Assembly: GCA_963739305.1 (NCBI GenBank)
Contig: CAVTZU010000015.1
Location: 60,365 to 124,364 of the forward strand
Source: Candidatus Bathyarchaeota archaeon
GTDB taxonomy: Archaea > Thermoproteota > Bathyarchaeia > Bathyarchaeales > Bathycorpusculaceae
DNA length: 64,000 nucleotides
Reading direction: 5' to 3'
A program made the translations under genes and the position numbers. The notes below the pieces were generated by a model. That model worked only from the letters and a program-made list of their open reading frames with translations. It was not told the DNA's origin and ran no database searches. Shown piece by piece: positions 45,582-60,965 of the stretch (positions are counted from its first letter, which is position 1; the number at the start of each line of letters is the position of its first letter).

Positions 45582-45901
45582 TGGCTGGCGAGTTGGTGTG
45601 TGGCTTTCGAGCCTTTGAATTGAAAGGCTTGAGGAAACTCCGCCCACGCGTAGAATTGCAGCGTTCGCAAGGGCGCAAGGTGAGAACCTTGGCTACGGAG
45701 CAGAAACGAAACGTCCATTCAGCAGGGGACGATGATGCATGTTAAGTTGCTGAGGATGCTGAGTGTGAAGCGGTGAAACGGCCGTCCTGCAAGTGGAAAG
45801 GGCAAACAGACGCTGATGACGTCTCTACCGGAAGCGCGGGTAGCCCGATTAGCCGAATGCCACAAAGAACAAAAGGCGGGTTACGACCAACACGCCAGCT
45901 A
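45582..45901 (+). ncRNA. rnpB: RNase P RNA
   Basis: P4 halves GAGGAAACTCCGCC and ACAAAAGGCGGGTTA; P1 TGGCTGGCG/CGCCAGCTA; GAAACGG motif; K-turn GATGA..CTGA. Confidence 0.92.
45882..45899 (+). repeat. attL, TACGACCAACACGCCAGC
   Basis: Identical to 56238-56255; lies in the rnpB 3' end. Confidence 0.85.
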
Positions 45902-45954: not shown

Positions 45955-46802
45955 ATGAAGCTAGACAACAAATCCGACTACACAATAAACTTCACACGCA
46001 AAGCACTCAACACAATCAGCGACCATGCAGACCTGAACAAACCCGACGAAGTGCGAATGTTCATAGCCATGCACAAAACCACAGACGGATACAAACGAAA
46101 CCTCTGCATAGCCTACAACAAATACGCCAAGTTTTACAACATCGCATGGAACATGCCCAAGTACAGACCAGAAGCGAAGAACATCGCACTACCAACCAAA
46201 GAGAAAATACAGATGCTCATCGCAAGCGCAGGGAAGCTCCTCGGAATGAAACTACAACTGAGCATGGAAACAGGATTAAGACCCGTAGAACTCGCTCGAC
46301 TCAAAGTCAAAGACCTCGACCTAGACCACAAGACCGTTAATCCGACCACAGCAAAGAAAGGCAACGCAAGAACCCTGCCACTTAGCGAAACTCTCACAGC
46401 CAAGCTAAGAGAACACATAGCGAACCACAGCCTAGCACCCACAGACTTACTTTTCAAAGGAACAGATTCAGACCACTACGGAAAACAATACCGCGATATG
46501 CGAAACAAGCTATCCGAAAGAATAAAAGATCCATCAATCCGAACAATAAGACTCTACGACCTGAGACACTACTTCTGCACAAAGAAACTCAATGACATTC
46601 AGAACCCATACATCGTAATGGTGTTAATGGGACACACAAAACTCACAACAACCCAACGATACATGCACCTACTCAACCTCAACGACGACGAATGGACTGC
46701 ACAGGAGCAACAACAGCCAAAGAAGCCACCAAACTCATAGAAGCTGGATTCCAATACGTCACAACAATCGAAGGAATACAACTATTCAAAAAACGCAAAT
46801 AA
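45955..46802 (+). CDS. tyrosine recombinase/integrase, frameshift near 46697
   Basis: ETGLRPVEL, K, LYDLRHY, MGH, TQRY; shifted C-terminus CTGATTAKEATKLIEAGFQYVTTIEGIQLFKKRK. Confidence 0.93.
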
Positions 46803-46898
46803 CCCTCCTTTTTTCTTTATACCATCAAGAAACATCTTATCTTAGTAAGAGCATCATTGGAACTGATAAAACACTAAGTATCAATCCATAGAATAGTG

Positions 46899-47849: not shown

Positions 47850-47948
47850 TAAGAGTTTGGGTGTAGTGCGAGCTAAAGGTCACCAGAAGATTGTTCTATC
47901 TGCACATATTAGCCAAATTAGCTCACCCGCACCATGAAATCATCTTTA

Positions 47949-48000
47949 GCTCGTGAGCCTTTCGGCTCACTCGCACGTTCCAGCTTAATCGATACGCCAA
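47949..48000. repeat. hairpin repeat copy 1
   Basis: GCTCGTGAGCCTTTCGGCTCACTCGCACGTTCCA..GATACGCCAA. Confidence 0.9.
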
Positions 48001-48011
48001 TCGTACGCTCA

Positions 48012-48500
48012 CTAAGAGTTGCTGACGTTTGAATTCGGTCTTATGGTCACGACTGGATAGTTCTTGGCAGCCGCCGTCACCAACTCATTGAACTTATCTT
48101 CCGTTGTCTCAGCTGTAATTCCCAAGCGGTCCGCATGAGAAATTCGCACATACTCTGCAAGCCTAGGCACCGCATCTGTTTCATTGTGTTCGATTGTCCT
48201 TGCGAGGCATTCCATTGATTTCCCCTTGTAAAACAGATCTACCTTTGATTCTTTGCGAAAGTTGCGCCACCAAGTTGGTAGTTCTCCAAAACAGCCAGGC
48301 ACGACGATGAACTCGTCTTTGTACTGCGCGACATGGAAAATCAACGAGTGTTTCTTATGCGTCTTTCTTCCAGTGTAAGTCAGTATCACCCAGTTGTCAG
48401 GTAGCAGTGAGCGAAAAGGTGAACGAAGGATAGTTTCAAGGATAGGATTGAACAAGTTGTTGGCGAACCAGTACATCATCATTTTCTCGCCCCAATACAA
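48012..48500 (-). CDS. split-barrel deazaflavin(F420)-dependent nitroreductase-like protein
   Basis: LTYTGRKT, PTWWRNFR, YPVV. Confidence 0.75.
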   Translation of the reverse strand: MYWGEKMMMYWFANNLFNPILETILRSPFRSLLPDNWVILTYTGRKTHKKHSLIFHVAQYKDEFIVVPGCFGELPTWWRNFRKESKVDLFYKGKSMECLARTIEHNETDAVPRLAEYVRISHADRLGITAETTEDKFNELVTAAAKNYPVVTIRPNSNVSNS

Positions 48501-48535
48501 TCAAAAATTAACTCTTTAAAATAGCTGTTTGTCTA

Positions 48536-48560
48536 TTAGCTCACCCTTCGGCTCACTCGC
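48536..48560. repeat. partial hairpin repeat copy 2
   Basis: ATTAGCTCACCC (also present near 47918) joined to TTCGGCTCACTCGC. Confidence 0.65.
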
Positions 48561-48611
48561 CCGTAAGAGATATCTCTTCGCTAAACCATATTGGGTTAGG
48601 GGAAAGAAAGC

Positions 48612-49781
48612 TTGAATAGGGCATTTTCTGGATTATTGCTTGCACTGCTTTTTTTATGGGTGCTGCTGCTTGCATTCGAGGTTCAGCCAGTCAAAGCCGC
48701 CACATTCACTGTTCCAGATTATTACCCGACAATTCAAGCAGCCGTAAACGCCGCAAATAGCGGAGACGTCATATTCGTCAGGAATGGGACATACAACGAG
48801 CATCTTATCATCAACAAGACTCTCATGCTTGCTGGGGAGAACAGGGCAGGCGTGGCCATCGATGGAAACGAGACAGGACGAGTCATCAGCGTTTTCGCGG
48901 ACAACTGCACAATCACAGGGTTCACGGTGCGAGGAGGAGGTTTTACGCCTTGGGGTTCAGACAGCGGCATCTACATGGCCAGCTCAAACAACCTCGTAAC
49001 CAAGGACAATCTGATCAATAACAAAGACTGGGCCGTCTGGCTTGAAAACAGTTCCAGCAACAACACCGTGTCCAACAATCTCATAGCGAACAACTGGCGT
49101 GGAATCTACTTGAACCACAGCGCAGCAAACACCATAGCTGGCAACAACATTACAGACGCCAATCAGGGAATCTGCTTTGAAAGCTCCAGCTTCAACGTCG
49201 TCTGGAACAACTATATGTCAGAAGGCGCGACCGGCATAGCGGTTTATGATTCTTCCCTCAACAACTCTGTAACGTGCAACACATTCTCAGATAACTCGAT
49301 GGGAGTTGACGTTGGCGGGCAATCAGCTGTAGACTGTCCATCGAACAACACGTTTTATCACAACAACTTCATCGGTAACTATGAAGACATCCGTTTCTTA
49401 ACGTTCTTTGGCACGAATTCATGGGAAAACGGCTACCCTTCTGGCGGGAACTACTGGACTGACTACAACGGCACAGACTTGAAAAGTGGTCCTTATCAAA
49501 ACGAGACTGGAAGCGATGGGATCGGAGACAAGCCGTACATTATCGCTGGCAATGCTACCGACAATTATCCTCTCATGCATTCATTTGTCCCTCTTTCTGG
49601 AGATCTGAACCAAGATGACAAGGTCGATATGTATGACGCTATCCTAGCTTCCAAGGCCTTTGGATCAACGCCTTCCGATAAGAATTGGAACTCGGCGGCG
49701 GACCTGAACGGAGACGGCCATGTAGATATCTTCGACGTTATCATTCTGGCTCAGAACTTCGGCAAGATTTATCACCCTTAA
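48612..49781 (+). CDS. secreted NosD/CASH beta-helix protein with C-terminal dockerin-like domain
   Basis: VPDYYPTIQAA, Asn-rich repeats, GGNYWTDY, GDLNQDDKVD/ADLNGDGHVDIFD. Confidence 0.88.
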   Translation: MNRAFSGLLLALLFLWVLLLAFEVQPVKAATFTVPDYYPTIQAAVNAANSGDVIFVRNGTYNEHLIINKTLMLAGENRAGVAIDGNETGRVISVFADNCTITGFTVRGGGFTPWGSDSGIYMASSNNLVTKDNLINNKDWAVWLENSSSNNTVSNNLIANNWRGIYLNHSAANTIAGNNITDANQGICFESSSFNVVWNNYMSEGATGIAVYDSSLNNSVTCNTFSDNSMGVDVGGQSAVDCPSNNTFYHNNFIGNYEDIRFLTFFGTNSWENGYPSGGNYWTDYNGTDLKSGPYQNETGSDGIGDKPYIIAGNATDNYPLMHSFVPLSGDLNQDDKVDMYDAILASKAFGSTPSDKNWNSAADLNGDGHVDIFDVIILAQNFGKIYHP

Positions 49782-49813
49782 CTTGTGCAACACAGGCGCA
49801 CTAGAACATCTTG

Positions 49814-49847
49814 GCTCGTGAGCCGTTCGGCTCACTCGCACGTTCCA
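49814..49847. repeat. hairpin repeat copy 3
   Basis: GCTCGTGAGCCGTTCGGCTCACTCGCACGTTCCA. Confidence 0.9.
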
Positions 49848-49906
49848 GACGATTGCGCGCGCGGTCGCATTAAGCTTTTAGCAAACCAGTGTGATGTTCT
49901 TTCAAG

Positions 49907-51016
49907 GTGACTAATGTGACGGACCAGAGAATTGAAAGACTCGCGAAACTATGTATTCACTACAGTGTTGATGTCAAGCCAAAAGAGCAAGTCGTGATAC
50001 GGGGAAGCACATCAGCCGTGCCGTTGATCCGCGAATTATATAAAGAATGCCTGCTGCGTCGTGCCCATCCGCTTTTCTTGCCTGTTTCCGATTTCGACTA
50101 TGCTTTCTACAAGTACGCAAAAGAACCCCAACTGGAATTTGTCTCGCCTTTCTCGAAGTTCCTCGTGGAAAATGAGGATGTGACGATAAGAGTAGTGTGC
50201 GACCCAAACCCTAAGCAATTGACAACAATAGACCCTGCAAAAATAAGGAAGCACAGCGCCTCCCAGAAAGAGATCAGCGAGATCTTCCACAAACGCTATG
50301 CCGAAGGAAAACTCAGATGGACAGTTCTGCCCTACCCGATCAATGGTCAAGCACAAGAAGCTGCAATGTCACTCGAAGAATACGAAGACTTCGTCTACGA
50401 TAGCTGCCTGCTTGACAAGAAAGACCCTGAGTTCGAATGGAAGAAAATCCAGAAACAACAAGAAAAGACCTGCAACCTCTTGAACAAGACCAGCCAAATT
50501 CGGATGGTGGGTAAAGACACGGAATTGACCTTCAACGTGAAAGGCAGAAAATGGATAAACTGCAGCGGAAAAGAAAATATGCCAGACGGAGAAGTGTACA
50601 CTGGACCCGTCGAAAACTCGTTGAACGGTACGATAAGATTCACCTACCCAGGAATATACTCTGGCAAAGAAGTAGAGGACATCACACTCACATTCAATAA
50701 AGGCAAAGTCATCAAAGCCTCAGCCGCCAAAGGAGACGAACTACTAAGAGAGATACTGAAGATTGAAGGCGCAAACCGCATCGGCGAAGCTGCCATCGGA
50801 ACAAACTACGGCATAACACAGTTCACTAAGGAGATGCTTTTCGACGAGAAAATGGGCGGAACAATCCACATGGCCCTCGGAAACTCCTACCCAAAAACAG
50901 GAGGACTAAACAAATCGGCCATCCACTGGGACCTCCTCAAAGACATGAAGAAAGGCAGCGAAATCTACGCAGACAAAGAACTGTTCTACAAGAATGGAAA
51001 GTTTCTGAAAACTTGA
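49907..51016 (+). CDS. M29 (AmpS/aminopeptidase II) metalloaminopeptidase
   Basis: NMPDGEVYTGP, GEAAIGTN, LFDEKMGGTIHMALG, SAIHWD. Confidence 0.93.
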   Translation: MTNVTDQRIERLAKLCIHYSVDVKPKEQVVIRGSTSAVPLIRELYKECLLRRAHPLFLPVSDFDYAFYKYAKEPQLEFVSPFSKFLVENEDVTIRVVCDPNPKQLTTIDPAKIRKHSASQKEISEIFHKRYAEGKLRWTVLPYPINGQAQEAAMSLEEYEDFVYDSCLLDKKDPEFEWKKIQKQQEKTCNLLNKTSQIRMVGKDTELTFNVKGRKWINCSGKENMPDGEVYTGPVENSLNGTIRFTYPGIYSGKEVEDITLTFNKGKVIKASAAKGDELLREILKIEGANRIGEAAIGTNYGITQFTKEMLFDEKMGGTIHMALGNSYPKTGGLNKSAIHWDLLKDMKKGSEIYADKELFYKNGKFLKT

Positions 51017-51118
51017 TCCGCGAACGCTCGCGCGCGCAAAACCTGTAAGCCGAGCCTCTTCTAGACTTCGGAAATTATTAAAGCATTATTACGCATATCA
51101 TACCTTCTGGGAACATAA

Positions 51119-51208
51119 ATGCCGAAAAAAGAAAAACCGTTAACTAAGAAAGAGCGAGACGAGAAAAGGAAGAAACATAAGGAAAAGCAAAGCAAAACAC
51201 AGACTTAA
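51119..51208 (+). CDS. tiny Lys/Arg-rich peptide (29 aa)
   Basis: MPKKEKPLTKKERDEKRKKHKEKQSKTQT; T-rich tract downstream. Confidence 0.45.
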   Translation: MPKKEKPLTKKERDEKRKKHKEKQSKTQT

Positions 51209-51379
51209 GCCCCAAGAAAGAGCTTTGCAAAACTCTTTTTCTCTTTTTACCATAAAGTTGGCTTCTTTAATGAAATGAAAGAAAGACGCGTCAGCTTTGG
51301 ATATTATTGGCTTCCTCCATTAATGCGAAAGAAATATGTTTTAGCTTGTTTATTTATCGTTAATTTGTAGCTGAGATTT

Positions 51380-51508
51380 ATGCCGAGTGTAATGAAACGT
51401 AAACAAAAGAATACTCAAATCGCACAACAGAAAAAGATAGAACGGGATAAAGAAGCGAAAAAGAAACAGTTGAGACAGCAACTTCCTGCCAAGGGCAAGA
51501 AACGTTAA
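51380..51508 (+). CDS. tiny Lys/Gln-rich peptide (42 aa)
   Basis: MPSVMKRKQKNTQIAQQKKIERDKEAKKKQLRQQLPAKGKKR. Confidence 0.5.
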   Translation: MPSVMKRKQKNTQIAQQKKIERDKEAKKKQLRQQLPAKGKKR

Positions 51509-51599
51509 AGCCACTAAAGGAGCTATGGTAACCTCTAGAAGCGCGCGCCTTGCGGAACCGCGAGCGCGATGGGAAGCTGTGGTACAATAGGCATCATTT

Positions 51600-51665
51600 C
51601 TACTTCATTGCTTCTTTCTTCTTTTTTTCTTCTTTCATCCTTTCTCTCTTTCTTTTAGTTGTCAT
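51600..51665 (-). CDS. tiny Lys/Arg-rich peptide (21 aa)
   Basis: MTTKRKRERMKEEKKKKEAMK. Confidence 0.35.
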   Translation of the reverse strand: MTTKRKRERMKEEKKKKEAMK

Positions 51666-51837
51666 CGCATCACGTTCTATTTACCATATATCTCTAACAA
51701 TTTCGTAGACTTGTTGTAAAGAATATCTATTTCTATGTTTCCTTGCTAATTTTCCTATTTCACGCGCCCTTACGCGCGCATCGTTTTGGATAAGCAGTGC
51801 GAATACACTATAAGCCGCGAAGCACCTATTATCGGAA

Positions 51838-52035
51838 ATGCAACCTAATCAGCAGAGGAGCCAAATCAATCCTGGTACCCGCGTAAAAATCATCTTGAAG
51901 CAAGACCAACGCAACGGCAAATTAACTGAGGGCATCGTCAAGAATATCCTCACCAACAGCTCAACTCACCCCCACGGAATCAAGGTACGACTAATAGACG
52001 GCAAAGTCGGCAGAGTACAATCAATAATAAAATAG
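51838..52035 (+). CDS. YwbE/DUF2196 family protein
   Basis: LKQDQRNGKLTEG.VK.ILT.S..HPHGIKVRL.DG.VGRV. Confidence 0.9.
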   Translation: MQPNQQRSQINPGTRVKIILKQDQRNGKLTEGIVKNILTNSSTHPHGIKVRLIDGKVGRVQSIIK

Positions 52036-52048
52036 TAGCGCGCGAGGA

Positions 52049-52249
52049 TTAGGGCCGTCTTTGTATGAGTATCCTGTCTATTTTTCCTTCTGCTAGTTGT
52101 TCCTGCAACTCTTTGACGAAGCTGTAGAATTCGTCTGGAAACATGGCGACTTCTGTGTTCATGTCGAACGTTTTTGTCTGGGCCACGGTGTTGGCGTAAA
52201 GGCCGTTCTTGATTCCTTCCACACTAACCCGTACCATACCATCATCCAT
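52049..52249 (-). CDS. hypothetical protein
   Basis: Short ORF between two (GC)n runs. Confidence 0.5.
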   Translation of the reverse strand: MDDGMVRVSVEGIKNGLYANTVAQTKTFDMNTEVAMFPDEFYSFVKELQEQLAEGKIDRILIQRRP

Positions 52250-52295
52250 AGAAAGAAGAAAGGAAGATAGATTATATACATATCTAACGCGCGCG

Positions 52296-52329
52296 CGCAA
52301 ATAACCCTCTTTTTTCTTTATCCATTAAG
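52296..52329 (+). repeat. copy of the integrase stop/terminator region (46794-46829)
   Basis: CGCAAATAACCCTC(C)TTTTTTCTTTAT(A)CCAT(C/T)AAG at both sites. Confidence 0.75.
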
Positions 52330-52340
52330 CGAGCGCAAAG

Positions 52341-53618
52341 TCAATGATCGACACGGAATCCTGCTAATTCTCCGTCTCCAACGACATTCAAATTGTGTAT
52401 GAAGTCGCCCTGACCATTGCTGGTCATGGGAAATGAACCGTGATCAAGCCAACCACTTCCGTAGTATCCGCATGAAAGTGTGTTGTTGTGGATTATGCTT
52501 CCTCCGTATATCAACTGCGTGTAGATATTGATGAAGTTGCAGTTATCAAGTAGGATCATTCTTCCGTCATTTGCGTACTCAAAGTCTGCGGCATGAATCG
52601 TGATCCATGCCGAGTTATTCATGTGCAATGAGAACGACGTTGACAGGTCTGAACTGCGGTCCATTATGTCTAACCGTCTGAACTCAATCAGGTTAAGCTG
52701 GAATTGCCAATCCGTGCCGACCAGTTCAACAATGTTCTTGGATATCTGCAAGCTTGGCGCAGTCCTAGCCAAAACCTCTTCAAATACGGCATCACCGTAT
52801 TTTATAGTGTTGCTTAGGCTTGCAAAATAGAGTGCTGGGCCTCCGAAACTAAACAGCATCTTGCCAGTTATATGCAGAAAATTGACCAAATAGAAACCGT
52901 AGTGGTCTGCATCGTGGCCGAGAACGACAATATTCTCTAATGTAGAGTACAGCAAACCTGAGTTCCCGAAACCAGGATCGCTGCAAATTCCGTTTCCAGT
53001 TCCATTCCCTGAAAACTTTACTACCAAATTCTTGATTGAGACAGTGAGAGTGCCTACTAACGTTATGCCATTTGTATCAGGGGATGTGACCTCAATGACT
53101 GTTCCTCCTGCGGAGGAAAGAATCCCATCGGGATCGAGAGGAAGACTCTGTGGCTCAGTGAAAATCCCTTCGCCGACAATGCTTATACTCTTGTTGACTG
53201 TGAACGGGCCGTACACCCCATTCTTCAAGAAGACAAGACCTCCACTTGGAGTGGAGTCTATTGCTCGCTCGATTATTTGACTGGAATTGTCCCCCGAAAA
53301 GTCTGCTTTTCCTGTGGAGCCGTTGTAGGCTTTCACGGTATTGTTTTCCCAAGAGATTAGGTAACTTGCCTCAAAGCGTGAATCGGCAGTTGTTCCAGGC
53401 GTCCCCTGAGGACCCTGAACGCCCTGCAAACCTTGATCACCCTTGTCTCCTTTAGGACCTACTGCCAACCTCAAAGAAACCAATGAAGAAACAAGACTGG
53501 AAAGTACAACGATTACCGCGAGGCTCACGATGAAAGTGGTTCTTGAAATTCTTAACTCAGAGATCTTCTCATCCTCAAAACCCAAATTCACTCTTGTCTG
53601 TTTAAATGATTTGTCCAT
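52341..53618 (-). CDS. membrane-anchored protein with short collagen-like repeat and pectate-lyase-like beta-helix
   Basis: TM helix, GPKGDKGDQGLQGVQGPQGTPG, IERAID..GGLVFLKNG.Y. Confidence 0.72.
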   Translation of the reverse strand: MDKSFKQTRVNLGFEDEKISELRISRTTFIVSLAVIVVLSSLVSSLVSLRLAVGPKGDKGDQGLQGVQGPQGTPGTTADSRFEASYLISWENNTVKAYNGSTGKADFSGDNSSQIIERAIDSTPSGGLVFLKNGVYGPFTVNKSISIVGEGIFTEPQSLPLDPDGILSSAGGTVIEVTSPDTNGITLVGTLTVSIKNLVVKFSGNGTGNGICSDPGFGNSGLLYSTLENIVVLGHDADHYGFYLVNFLHITGKMLFSFGGPALYFASLSNTIKYGDAVFEEVLARTAPSLQISKNIVELVGTDWQFQLNLIEFRRLDIMDRSSDLSTSFSLHMNNSAWITIHAADFEYANDGRMILLDNCNFINIYTQLIYGGSIIHNNTLSCGYYGSGWLDHGSFPMTSNGQGDFIHNLNVVGDGELAGFRVDH

Positions 53619-53662
53619 AAAACCTTGGCGTGCGCTTTTTATTCCGAAACGAAGAGAAAAAG

Positions 53663-53709
53663 GCTCGTGAGCCGTTCGGCTCACTCGCACGTTCCAAGCG
53701 ATACGCCAA
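53663..53709. repeat. hairpin repeat copy 4
   Basis: GCTCGTGAGCCGTTCGGCTCACTCGCACGTTCCA..GATACGCCAA. Confidence 0.9.
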
Positions 53710-53791
53710 AAAACCGACACACTCAAAACTAACGACGCGCGCACTCGCTAGATTTAAAATGTCGTGTCCCTTTTTCATGTAATGTGTCCTT

Positions 53792-55620: not shown

Positions 55621-55732
55621 AGGAACTTTTCATACCAGCGCGCGCTATAACTTTTCCGCAAAATCCAAAACGGGCTTAGAAATGATAGTAGAGGACTGTT
55701 GTAGTTATCTTCGAACAGTCTTCCTTCAGATG

Positions 55733-56143: not shown

Positions 56144-56237
56144 CTTTTAGATAAGTTCGGTTCAGCTATAACCTTTCCGCAAAACCAAAAAAGAGGGGTG
56201 TTTGCGGATAATGGCGACGTCGCCAGCCTTGCTAGGC

Positions 56238-56255
56238 TACGACCAACACGCCAGC
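56238..56255 (+). repeat. attR (displaced rnpB 3' end)
   Basis: Identical to 45882-45899. Confidence 0.85.
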
Positions 56256-56607
56256 CATTACTGCTGTGATTCTTACGCGCGCGAGCGTGAAGGTGGGATG
56301 GTGGTGGATACCCCTCCTAGGTTTCAATGTACCATGAATATTTGGATCCAAATAGGTCACTTTAGGGTTCATGTAATCAGGGTTATAGGTGGGTTTCCAA
56401 GCAATGATTGCCACGGTCCTTCCCACATGACCTAATGAAGCATTATCCTCAGCATCTTACGGAGTCATGGACGGTTAAGGACTTCAAGTTCTTTGTCAAG
56501 CCGAAGACCATGCATAGACTTTTGAAGAACACGGTGAGAAGCCTCTGCTTACGTACGTGTTTTTGTTTCCTCTCACCATAAATACTTGGAGTGCTAGATT
56601 TTCGTTT

Positions 56608-59312: not shown

Positions 59313-60965
59313 CTAAGCAGTTCGATAAGCGTTCTCAACCGCCACTTTTTCGTTTGGCTTTATCCAGCCTTCATTTTCAAGTTCTTCAAGCCCCTTCTTA
59401 AGTCGCTTCTCAAAATCTCCCGACGCTATCAGATTATTCGCTGCAGCGACTTTGTCCACGTCAGTTTCGAGTTCCTTGTCGTTTTCAAGCGCCTTTCTGA
59501 GGAGGCTAACCAGTTTCTCGATGCCCTTAGAGCGCGGTCTCAGAAAACTGGAAATTCTGGATCCGAGACCTGAGACGCCTAGGGCGGTTCCGATTCGTAG
59601 AGCAAACCCTTTGTATTCCTGAGCGATGACAGGTTCGAACATTAAATATTTTTTTTCACTGTCTATTTGAAGGCCAGCCAGGTAAATTGGAACGCCAATA
59701 AGCATTGGACTCACGGTCTCCCATGGAACCATCGTCTCCTCTATTTCTGACATGGACAACGTGATTTGCGCGATTAAACCGTTAATGTTTTTTGTGAGGA
59801 CCTGCGTCTTTTCCTGCAATTCCTCAGTCTCGGCGTTCTTCTCTTGAATTTTGAGGTCTCTCGACTTCTCAAGACTGACGATTCTCATCTTTTCTTCACC
59901 GATCAATTTCGAATACCGCTCGTTCAGCTTCTTCGTTGCCTTTTCTGTTTCTTTCTGTGTCTTGGTCATGCGGTCTGAAAGAGATTTTACTTTTCCATTC
60001 ACGCTGGAAAACTGCTTCTTAACTTGCCTAACTCGCACGTTCCACCTGGCTTCACCAGGTTTGTCTTTCTTTGCCCTTCGCAGGTCTCTTCTTTTTTCGT
60101 ACTCAGTTTTGTCTTGTTCAAGTCGGATAAGCTGCTTCTCCAACTCTTGCTTTTCCGCGAGGGTTTCTTCAATTCTCGCGTCGTTGTTTTTTGTTATCCT
60201 AGAGATTTCCGAGCTGCGCTCATCCTCGAGTTTCGACGTCTTCTCACGAACAGTCACGCTCAAAATTGAAATGCGTTGGTTGAAGTCATCTTGAATTTCC
60301 TTGAGTTCTTTCTCAAGCCTATCTCCATGTGCCCGAGTTTCTTCAGCCACGACTTCCATCGCATACTGCAACCCTTTGATTTGTACCTGCAGAGTAGCCA
60401 AGTTTTCTAAGATTTCTTCTGCGATCCTTATGGCATTTTCTTTGTCAATTCGCAAGGGAAGAAAGTAGTCAGGCCATGGCGTTGAAGAAACAGCGATCGT
60501 TTTTGTCTCTCTGAGAAAGCTCGTCAAATCCAAAACTGTCTCTTTGTCCGAAACATACCCTGCAATCGTTATTTGCTTTTGCGTGGAAAACCTATTGAAA
60601 ACTGCGGCTTCGCTACGTAATGCGCTGACGTACTGTTCTTGTTCTCTAGCGCTTCTTTTGATAGTTTCGGCAAGAGCCTCAGGATCTGGCGGTTTCAGAG
60701 AGGAAACGTTGCCAGAGACAAGCTTCATTCCGTCGATTAGGAAGCTCTTCTTTCCGTGGGGAATACACCATATAGGATAGTAAACCTTAGACATGAAGGA
60801 TGGAACCATTGCGTGTTCTCTAGCCCGCCACTTTTTCCATCCGACTTCAATAGCACATGCTATCGCCGCAAGTTCCATATCATCAGACAATTCAGTGTCT
60901 CTATTTTTGTTCTTATCTGCAAAGGGCAGAATTAAGTAGGGTGCGGACATCTGCTTCCACAGCAT
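59313..60965 (-). CDS. long coiled-coil protein
   Basis: Globular termini around a long central coiled coil. Confidence 0.75.
   Translation of the reverse strand: MLWKQMSAPYLILPFADKNKNRDTELSDDMELAAIACAIEVGWKKWRAREHAMVPSFMSKVYYPIWCIPHGKKSFLIDGMKLVSGNVSSLKPPDPEALAETIKRSAREQEQYVSALRSEAAVFNRFSTQKQITIAGYVSDKETVLDLTSFLRETKTIAVSSTPWPDYFLPLRIDKENAIRIAEEILENLATLQVQIKGLQYAMEVVAEETRAHGDRLEKELKEIQDDFNQRISILSVTVREKTSKLEDERSSEISRITKNNDARIEETLAEKQELEKQLIRLEQDKTEYEKRRDLRRAKKDKPGEARWNVRVRQVKKQFSSVNGKVKSLSDRMTKTQKETEKATKKLNERYSKLIGEEKMRIVSLEKSRDLKIQEKNAETEELQEKTQVLTKNINGLIAQITLSMSEIEETMVPWETVSPMLIGVPIYLAGLQIDSEKKYLMFEPVIAQEYKGFALRIGTALGVSGLGSRISSFLRPRSKGIEKLVSLLRKALENDKELETDVDKVAAANNLIASGDFEKRLKKGLEELENEGWIKPNEKVAVENAYRTA

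Follow-up and report, generated by a model that had tools for sequence, protein, structure and literature searches.

A hairpin repeat, here termed H, lies within a 64,000-nt stretch of DNA from Candidatus Bathyarchaeota archaeon (GCA_963739305.1, contig CAVTZU010000015.1, positions 60,365–124,364 of the forward strand; hereafter the window), and is a structured cis element of ~50 nt carried by widespread integrative elements of the Bathyarchaeia. We tentatively favour H as the single-strand origin (or site of nicking) of integrative elements that replicate by a rolling circle, because of its fixed orientation to a neighbouring gene for a putative replication initiator (rep), the arrangement of a single-stranded leader followed by a hairpin, the presence of mini-hairpin loops, the sharp edge of the repeat unit, and the reassortment of sequence flanking it. 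An earlier note on this DNA had proposed a single-strand-folded recombination or origin site belonging to a new gene-cassette capture system; the origin is the part of that proposal we retain, whereas an integron-like cassette system run by the integrase finds no support in the analyses presented here.

Copies and extent of the repeat

A 26-nt pattern matches exactly at positions 47949, 49814, and 53663 of the window, in each case on the + strand, and in none of 100 dinucleotide-preserving shuffles, in agreement with the three same-orientation copies first reported. The corresponding units are H1 (47947–48000, + strand), which has the loop TTTC and a tail broken after CCAG that resumes with CGATACGCCAA, H2 (49812–49854, + strand), which is followed directly by GCGCGCGC at 49855–49862, and H3 (53661–53712, + strand), which has a complete tail. 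The partial copy reported near 48540 corresponds to a degenerate hairpin unit (48537–48571, + strand) that has lost its left arm, with 21 nt of this unit (48544–48564) sharing 90% identity with the reference. The CTAGAAC...GTTCCAG frame previously assigned to copy 3 encloses copy 2 (49814). The further claim that all copies are intergenic holds once the start of one gene is revised, with copy 3 overlapped only by the N-terminal extension of a mechanically called open reading frame (ORF; 52341–53744), the likely start of which is Met43 at position 53618.

The window's own 2.3-Mb genome (G000, with contigs C15, C25, and C26; other G-numbers denote genomes, and L-numbers loci) contains five full copies of H, namely the three in the window and those at C15:6996–7035 and C25:16169–16209, each of the latter adjoining another integrase. 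Confinement of the repeat to a single island, as originally described, is therefore correct for the full copies of the window but not for the genome as a whole. An 18/20 match to the 3′ half of H at 60028–60047, outside the island (E = 0.68), is probably due to chance.

A profile was built from 96 unique contexts, in which conservation within the 27-nt search core is by construction. The profile places the unit at ~50–52 nt, extending from 8 nt before GAGCC to ~43 nt after it, with a sharp 5′ edge, a 3′ tail that gradually fades, and unrelated flanks. Just outside the sharp edge, CTT(G/A) is weakly preferred, with frequencies of 0.38–0.71. A coding role for H was rejected; the + frame is open, but stops, starts, and downstream lengths are inconsistent, with an in-frame start present in 44 of the 96 contexts. 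H was likewise rejected as a CRISPR remnant or terminator, there being no array, and the T-runs lying before the hairpin and not after it.

Association with integrases

In a search of one genome per prokaryote species, the exact 29-nt core of H was found only in records of Bathyarchaeia metagenome-assembled genomes (MAGs), in 13 stretches. With up to three mismatches allowed, H occurs at 39 sites in 14 of 201 genomes of the host's family, representing 7 of 70 genera, and the reversed pattern, used as a control, gave no sites. A scan of metagenomes identified at least 120 stretches carrying the exact 27-nt core, from which 80 loci were fetched. The exact core had no match in viral_contigs, and H had none in plasmids (megablast).

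A co-oriented integrase lies upstream on the same contig at all 39 genome sites (14 genomes), 27 of them within 3.2 kb, with the integrase of three sites (G156:C11) being frameshifted and detected by a dedicated tblastn search. These integrases are 23–100% identical to that of the window. Among 82 H instances from the metagenome loci, 46 have an integrase on the contig, and in 46/46 it is upstream on the same strand, with none on the opposite strand; one locus (L063) carries an additional, second integrase 5.9 kb downstream of H. Where a metagenome instance has 2 kb or more of sequence upstream, the integrase is present in 27 of 31 cases, and at the smallest spacing H begins 32–44 nt past the integrase stop codon and a T-run. 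In G000, H lies beside 3 of at least 8 integrase copies. The earlier note had tied the repeat to integrases and had named genome-wide scatter independent of integrases as the observation that would speak against its proposal; the association is borne out at the genome sites and metagenome instances alike, and no such scatter is seen. All five copies in G000 are beside integrases, no copy of H was found in the opposite orientation among the metagenome loci, and a dispersed repeat similar to repetitive extragenic palindromes (REPs) or miniature inverted-repeat transposable elements (MITEs) was rejected on this basis.

H might nevertheless be a packaging, transfer, or resolution site of a helper element, or a functionless, REP/MITE-like selfish repeat spread by recombination between islands. 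The repeat is near-identical in at least 96 unrelated contexts from the 7 genera, which suggests recent spread or one common recognising factor; many H-bearing islands lack rep, and H is polymorphic between two GCGCGC sites, being present in one locus (L057) and absent from the window. However, H is never found away from an integrase nor in the opposite orientation, unlike REP or MITE repeats, no helper element was identified, and compensatory changes in the stem (see below) point to selection on the fold. We consider this explanation improbable.

Hairpin structure

Each strand of H forms a hairpin with a stem of 7 bp and a loop of 4 nt; beyond a 2×2 internal loop (GA/GA on the bottom strand), GC..GC closes the structure. 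This reproduces the bottom-strand hairpin with tandem G-A mismatches that had been predicted for these copies. Scans in which the stem was left free recovered at least five different stems, all of which pair: GTGAGCC, GACCCGC (G021), GTAAGGC (G019), GCGTCGC (G188), and GGCG-GA-GC (G079, G129, G157, and G166), with the leader, loop, and flanks conserved. Single-base stem variants and one form with a 3-nt loop were also found. Covariation was assessed variant by variant, with MAFFT alignment found to misalign the variant stems. At the level of sequence comparison, these compensatory stems argue for selection on the fold of H.

All six variants tested fold at the same place, with the minimum free energy of the bottom strand lower than that of the top strand in five variants and tied in one, although the margins are small. 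On the bottom strand the loop sequence is GAA(N), and the hairpins of three variants contain GCGAAGC or GCGAAAGC, sequences described as forming extraordinarily stable DNA mini-hairpins at single-stranded DNA (ssDNA) replication initiation sites (PMC13037366). These bottom-strand features favour the bottom strand as the one that folds. Furthermore, the conserved purine-purine 2×2 loops are not symmetric in duplex form, and we infer from this that H acts as a folded strand. The free-stem scan of all species additionally returned 25 bacterial loci with 0–4 complementary positions, which were set aside as chance or coding matches, and ~10 matches to the leader pattern were set aside on inspection as an unrelated conserved locus (TCTGGAACGATGCC...) with no hairpin.

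The same fold could in principle act at the RNA level, as a bottom-strand structured RNA serving as a rep 3′-end or insulator hairpin, a small RNA, or a protein-binding motif (with its tandem G-A pairs and GNRA-like loop). H is located past the stops of two convergent genes, and as RNA the bottom strand is the more stable in all three window copies, with −17.5 compared with −14.8 kcal/mol for copy 1. Contigs from an RNA library also include H-containing sequence, for which carry-over of DNA is possible. However, T-runs precede H on both strands and, with archaeal transcription terminating at oligo-T, would tend to stop transcripts before they reach H. Additionally, H matches no Rfam 15 family (the best score is 13.7 bits, E = 2), and most of its loops are GAAC, not GNRA. 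A role as RNA would also leave both the sharp-edged reassortment junction and the co-oriented arrays in rep-less islands unexplained, and appears to us quite unlikely.

A Rep-like protein family adjacent to the repeat

Clustering of the ORFs around H revealed one recurrent family besides the integrase, a Cys-rich protein of ~330–410 amino acids, examples of which are encoded at L111:1533–2531 and L054:9531–10772. This Rep-like gene lies downstream of H and on the opposite strand in all 23 instances that have it on the contig, and is present in 14 of the 26 H instances that have 2.5 kb or more of sequence downstream. In genomes, 11 same-contig pairs of H and the Rep-like gene were found, one of them formed by a Rep remnant and the H copy at C15:7000. 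The protein is encoded in 90 of 332 genomes of the host's family, among them 13 of the 14 that carry H. In 12 Rep-anchored loci taken from genomes with no canonical H, a convergent integrase is present in 11, and in G019 the variant hairpin lies 79 nt past the rep stop, on the rep strand.

Thirteen Rep-like sequences share, in order, the invariant residues E125-H126..S130, H180/H182 (HxH), and Y240..H244, the succession of motif 1, the HUH motif, and Tyr that characterises the HUH superfamily. The AlphaFold2 models of the protein have a pLDDT of 87, and in an exhaustive VIA structure search with the catalytic domain only five chains were returned at Z ≥ 5, all of them HUH endonucleases (Z 5.4–5.8). 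These comprise two entries of pMV158 RepB, 8amu (Z 5.8, root-mean-square deviation (rmsd) of 3.5 over 111 aligned residues) and 3dkx (Z 5.8, rmsd of 3.8 over 116 aligned residues), together with SIRV1 ORF119 (Z 5.8) and two entries of the Vientovirus Rep (Z 5.4–5.5), whilst the whole protein gave matches of Z 4.0–4.7. The named look-alike clusters of the protein in ESM-Atlas carry Rep_1 and Zn_Tnp_IS91, with a score of 0.96, which we treat as a lead. The Cys-rich family is thus probably an HUH-type Rep. No Pfam domains were found in the best 120 of at least 513 relatives of the protein, no tblastn match was obtained in phages or plasmids, and no close relative was found in viral_contigs; these negatives, like those for H, hold for the collections named and for the sensitivity of the searches used.

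Two Rep-bearing elements without H (L211 and L217, from G088 and G226) carry hairpins unrelated to H ~15–65 nt from the integrase stop, and in L211 the hairpin is followed by sequence resembling the 3′ tail of H, GATACGC..AAAAGCCG.

A putative single-strand origin

H-bearing elements insert into the RNase P RNA gene at its 3′ end, as well as elsewhere, and their fuller forms carry the convergent, Cys-rich, putative HUH-type Rep. In these forms H lies between the convergent integrase and rep genes; it shares the orientation of the integrase, and its bottom strand has the direction of rep. As an origin, the bottom strand would present the conserved leader (TCTGGAACGTGC-GA), followed by the hairpin with its GAA(N) loop and tandem G-A pairs; Rep may be guided to its nick site by this structure, cutting the strand a few bases to the 3′ side of the hairpin, at the sharp edge of the unit. 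Alternatively, H could be a priming site on the displaced strand. Tandem pile-up of elements would leave several co-oriented copies of H. The intervening DNA could then be reassorted if initiation at one copy were followed by termination at the copy after it, or through simple recombination between the identical 50-nt units.

The 96 contexts include four pairs with a common right flank, in which similarity ends precisely at the unit's 5′ edge, and five with a common left flank, in which it ends at the tail or on reaching the following GCGCGC. This divergence at the edges of the unit suggests that H provides portable homology for the reassortment of flanks. IS91-type enzymes are reported to move adjacent DNA when termination fails and to use bottom-strand circles (PMC13181058), which by analogy offers a model for exchange between co-oriented copies of H. 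A more elaborate version of this scheme, in which the co-oriented copies are substrates of the HUH Rep and inter-H ssDNA circles re-insert at other copies of H, would make the islands, along with their GCGCGC motif, an HUH-driven gene-shuffling platform and a functional analogue of ISCR/integron complexes; we regard this version as rather doubtful.

Several observations weigh against H as the origin of this Rep. The island of the window has no rep, and G000 retains only a Rep remnant of 38–40 amino acids, 2.5 kb past the H copy at C15:7000. H is tied more tightly to the integrase (27/31) than to Rep (14/26), and the Rep-like gene is found in far more genomes (90/332) than canonical H (13–14). 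Of the 12 Rep-anchored loci described above, only two have a hairpin of the H family, with unrelated hairpins following the integrase in two more. The HUH fold matches are weak, all having Z < 6, and Foldseek returned nothing against the PDB at E ≤ 1e-3 for either the whole protein or the domain; the protein also has no match in Pfam or PHROGs, and a sequence-profile search of the PDB gave nothing useful. Single-base stem variants produce top-strand wobble pairs in three lineages and bottom-strand ones in one, and the symmetric changes in the palindrome could come from a dimeric protein that binds double-stranded DNA. A 4-nt loop is small for nicking within the loop, and the comparison with other sequencing runs, which covered contigs, revealed no circles, nicks, or strand of transcription.

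The RNase P RNA island

The three copies of H in the window, and the degenerate unit, fall within a 10.4-kb island that adjoins the archaeal RNase P RNA gene (45588–45895, + strand), a full-length match to Rfam RF00373 (197.8 bits, gathering score of 84). The 3′ end of this gene forms attL (45879–45899, + strand), a copy of it forms attR (56235–56255, + strand), and the two are direct repeats identical at 20 of 21 positions, with an 18-nt core that is exact in both and absent elsewhere in the 2.3-Mb genome. As these repeats bound the region, and an integrase lies beside the RNA gene, the region 45.88–56.26 kb is an integrated element, with the direct repeats of the target gene's 3′ end and the integrase next to attL being the features that characterise a tyrosine-recombinase integrative element at an RNA gene. 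Sequence past attR (56288–56421) is homologous to the region downstream of RNase P in G118, and the RNase P RNA gene likewise precedes homologous islands in G180, G155, G118, G169, and G156.

The tyrosine integrase (45955–46802, + strand; PF00589, 4.7e-21) begins 60 nt past the RNase P RNA gene and is frameshifted near 46697. The mechanical ORF stops at 46740, and the conserved C-terminal tail, which ends in LFKKRK and a stop, is encoded in a different frame as far as 46802. Comparison of its frames with those of the homologue in G180 indicates a 1-nt frameshift; the protein is 261 amino acids as called and ~282 if read through. Contigs from other sequencing runs have one extra base at 46697, these being Logan contigs of mixed communities, from which uncovered parts, depth figures, and short-sided joints were excluded as evidence. 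The last codons, stop, and T-run of the integrase form a motif (46794–46813, + strand) that is also present at the ends of other integrases. In G000, four of nine integrase copies are frameshifted before a conserved C-terminal tail of ~35 amino acids ending in (F/Y)(R/K)KRK (window 46697, C15:5095–5935, C15:3564–4229, and C26:11117–11866), and these frameshifts could reflect decay, assembly error, or programmed frameshifting. The tail was considered as an H-specific partner and rejected, as integrases without H also carry it.

The cargo of the island is encoded on both strands and includes a membrane protein, an F420H2-quinone-reductase-like protein, a NosD/beta-helix/dockerin protein, an M29 aminopeptidase, YwbE, a collagen-like beta-helix protein, a cupin, and several unannotated proteins. 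With its frameshifted integrase, no rep, and three full copies of H plus one degenerate copy, the island is read here as a composite. Tandem elements of the same plan occur in G180, G155, and G169; those of G180 and G169, two or three in number, are marked off by copies of the RNase P 3′ end, each with an integrase and then H. In the window, a remnant of the integrase-end motif (52296–52315, + strand; a 95% match to 46794–46813) lies 1.35 kb upstream of H3, and comparable remnants precede internal hairpins in L049 and L058. On account of these tandem elements and remnants, part of the H “array” appears to be the leftovers of stacked elements. Several genera of Bathyarchaeia share this hot spot for integration at the RNase P RNA 3′ end, with up to three tandem elements present and integrases only 26–78% identical to that of the window (L049, L056/L057, L051, L058, and L059).

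The earlier note had read this arrangement as an integron-like array, in which the integrase would use the folded bottom strand of H as a secondary site and capture circular cassettes into co-oriented arrays. The strict co-oriented association of H with integrases is in keeping with such a system, as are the co-oriented arrays, where spacings between copies of 472–1275 nt suit single genes, the reassortment of flanks at both edges of H, and the retention of the fold whilst the stem varies; canonical integrons are moreover reported from Archaea (PMC9668308). The gene content between and beside copies is also variable, as had been claimed, with modules and flanks differing among loci. However, the integrase scores 54 bits against the integron-integrase model TIGR02249 (cut-off of 265) and 37 bits against NF011946 (cut-off of 435), in accordance with the lack of an IntI insertion remarked on previously. 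Its best NCBIfam model is XerA_Arch (77 bits, cut-off of 220), and it is a generic XerA-like tyrosine recombinase. The integrases associated with H are diverse and already use the RNase P 3′ end as att, and H accompanies only a minority of those in G000. H itself bears no similarity to att beyond that of shuffled controls; its tail, considered as a copy of att, was rejected with a local alignment score of 16 compared with a shuffle mean of 15.2.

The architecture of the repeat, judged by inspection and folding, is equally difficult to reconcile with attC. The stem of H spans 11 positions including the 2×2 loop, which leaves room for one recombinase monomer and not two, making it too short for an attC-type double binding site, and R and L boxes are absent. 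The integrase is upstream of and co-oriented with H, not divergent with an attI, and is often separated from the first H by cargo. The genes between copies are on both strands, with at least four ORFs in the H2–H3 segment, the module junctions carry GCGCGC motifs and not the hairpin, and the integrase-end remnants preceding internal copies fit accretion and decay. In IntI membership, attC architecture, and cassette-array organisation alike, the island is not an integron, and the capture of cassettes at H by the integrase is, in our estimation, unlikely.

Comparison with known systems

Returning to H as a candidate origin, the closest parallels are provided by integrase-bearing archaeal elements that replicate by a rolling circle. 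For SNJ2, an integrative virus of archaea, an experimentally defined rolling-circle origin is reported that consists of a hairpin located past rep and tolerates a mutation preserving its structure (PMC13107129). A cryptic integrated element from the thaumarchaea is described with a rolling-circle replication Rep related to those of SNJ1 and IS91 (PMC6563490). As far as these accounts describe them, such elements resemble the H-bearing ones in combining an integrase with a replication initiator and in having a conserved hairpin on the downstream side of rep, with structure retained over stem sequence. In contrast to SNJ2, whose Rep-Arvir is described as non-HUH, the Rep family here is HUH-like and a different family without Pfam annotation. 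The elements presented here also differ from SNJ2 and the thaumarchaeal element in targeting the RNase P RNA, in having multiple copies of H in tandem or decayed arrays, and in the persistence of H in rep-less islands, and are known from sequence alone.

Mini-hairpins of the GCGAAAGC type are described at the G4 complementary-strand origin and at ssiA (PMC13037366). H resembles pMV158 RepB-type origins and such ssi sites in combining a hairpin with a conserved single-stranded flank and GAA(N) loops, with RepB being the best, albeit weak, fold match of the Rep-like protein (Z 5.8). Unlike in RepB-type origins, the loop of H is 4 nt, and both a nick site and a priming site are possible for H.

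Similarities to IS91 and ISCR, to the extent that PMC13181058 sets these out, would include an HUH enzyme with a Zn-binding N-terminus (here the ESM-Atlas lead), a subterminal palindrome by the cut, an end located downstream of the gene, activity of the bottom strand as ssDNA, and mobilisation of neighbouring genes on failed termination. The tetranucleotides CTCG and GTTC within H, and CTT(G/A) outside its edge, may resemble the ends of IS91 and ISCR. H differs from oriIS and terIS of IS91 in that each element has one kind of hairpin, and the elements are att-bounded and carry an integrase. With integron attC/attI sites, as presented in PMC9668308, H shares co-oriented repeats beside a tyrosine recombinase, a plausible folded single strand, and variable gene content, but there is no IntI-specific domain, the hairpin is short and lacks R/L boxes, the integrase is co-oriented, the copies are near-identical, and the segments contain multiple genes on two strands.

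No published description of the H repeat, of Bathyarchaeia islands targeting RNase P, or of the Rep family was found in the literature searched, the scope of which stopped short of supplementary tables such as the archaeal integron MAG list of PMC9668308. H would be an origin-type hairpin of a kind already known from integrase-bearing rolling-circle elements, but the lineage and the Rep family concerned are without description in this literature. The Bathyarchaeia are abundant and uncultured, and their mobile elements have barely been described; the analyses presented here define a large family of small islands targeting the RNase P RNA together with their conserved cis element, a widespread unannotated protein family that is probably the replication initiator of the islands, and modular gene exchange between genera at 94–98% identity. 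Were the hairpin the origin of Rep, it would provide a handle for finding such elements, for building replicons or vectors, and for testing HUH-mediated movement of cargo.

Shuttling modules and the GCGCGC motif

A 515-nt module (51037–51550, + strand) bounded by GCGCGC runs, and containing two tiny Lys-rich ORFs (51119–51208 and 51380–51508), is 94–98% identical in five other loci or genomes from at least two genera, where it lies 37–1191 nt after the hairpin; in the window the M29 gene separates it from the hairpin. The module is also present in contigs from an RNA library. Eleven GCGCGC-type runs, at 49855, 51029, 51541, 51773, 52038, 52288, 53736, 54551, 54980, 55638, and 56276, mark each module or gene junction between 49855 and 56283. 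The window and L057 share both modules neighbouring the site at which they differ, with L057 reading GCGCGC-H-GCGCGC and the window a single run, and the mixed-community contigs of other runs contain an inversion between the runs at 52043 and 52288, as well as forms without the M29 gene.

GCGCGC occurs at 744 non-overlapping sites in the genome, of which 58% are intergenic, compared with 10–27% for 15 control hexamers, and is found in 17–22% of tandem, convergent, and divergent intergenic regions alike. This genome-wide occurrence at gene boundaries indicates a general gene-boundary signal that is not specific to the island, and constitutes a separate puzzle. Alternating GC runs of the consensus A-(GC)3-5-T number 899 in G000, 472 of them intergenic, and in the window span 2923–63984. 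The runs have hot spots in islands and at contig ends, with module insertions and deletions and one inversion ending at them. A 27-nt direct repeat (55644–55670 and 56165–56191, 89% identical), each copy of which lies just past an GCGCGCGC run, flanks an ORF of 136 amino acids, and other contigs skip the 485 nt between the two copies.

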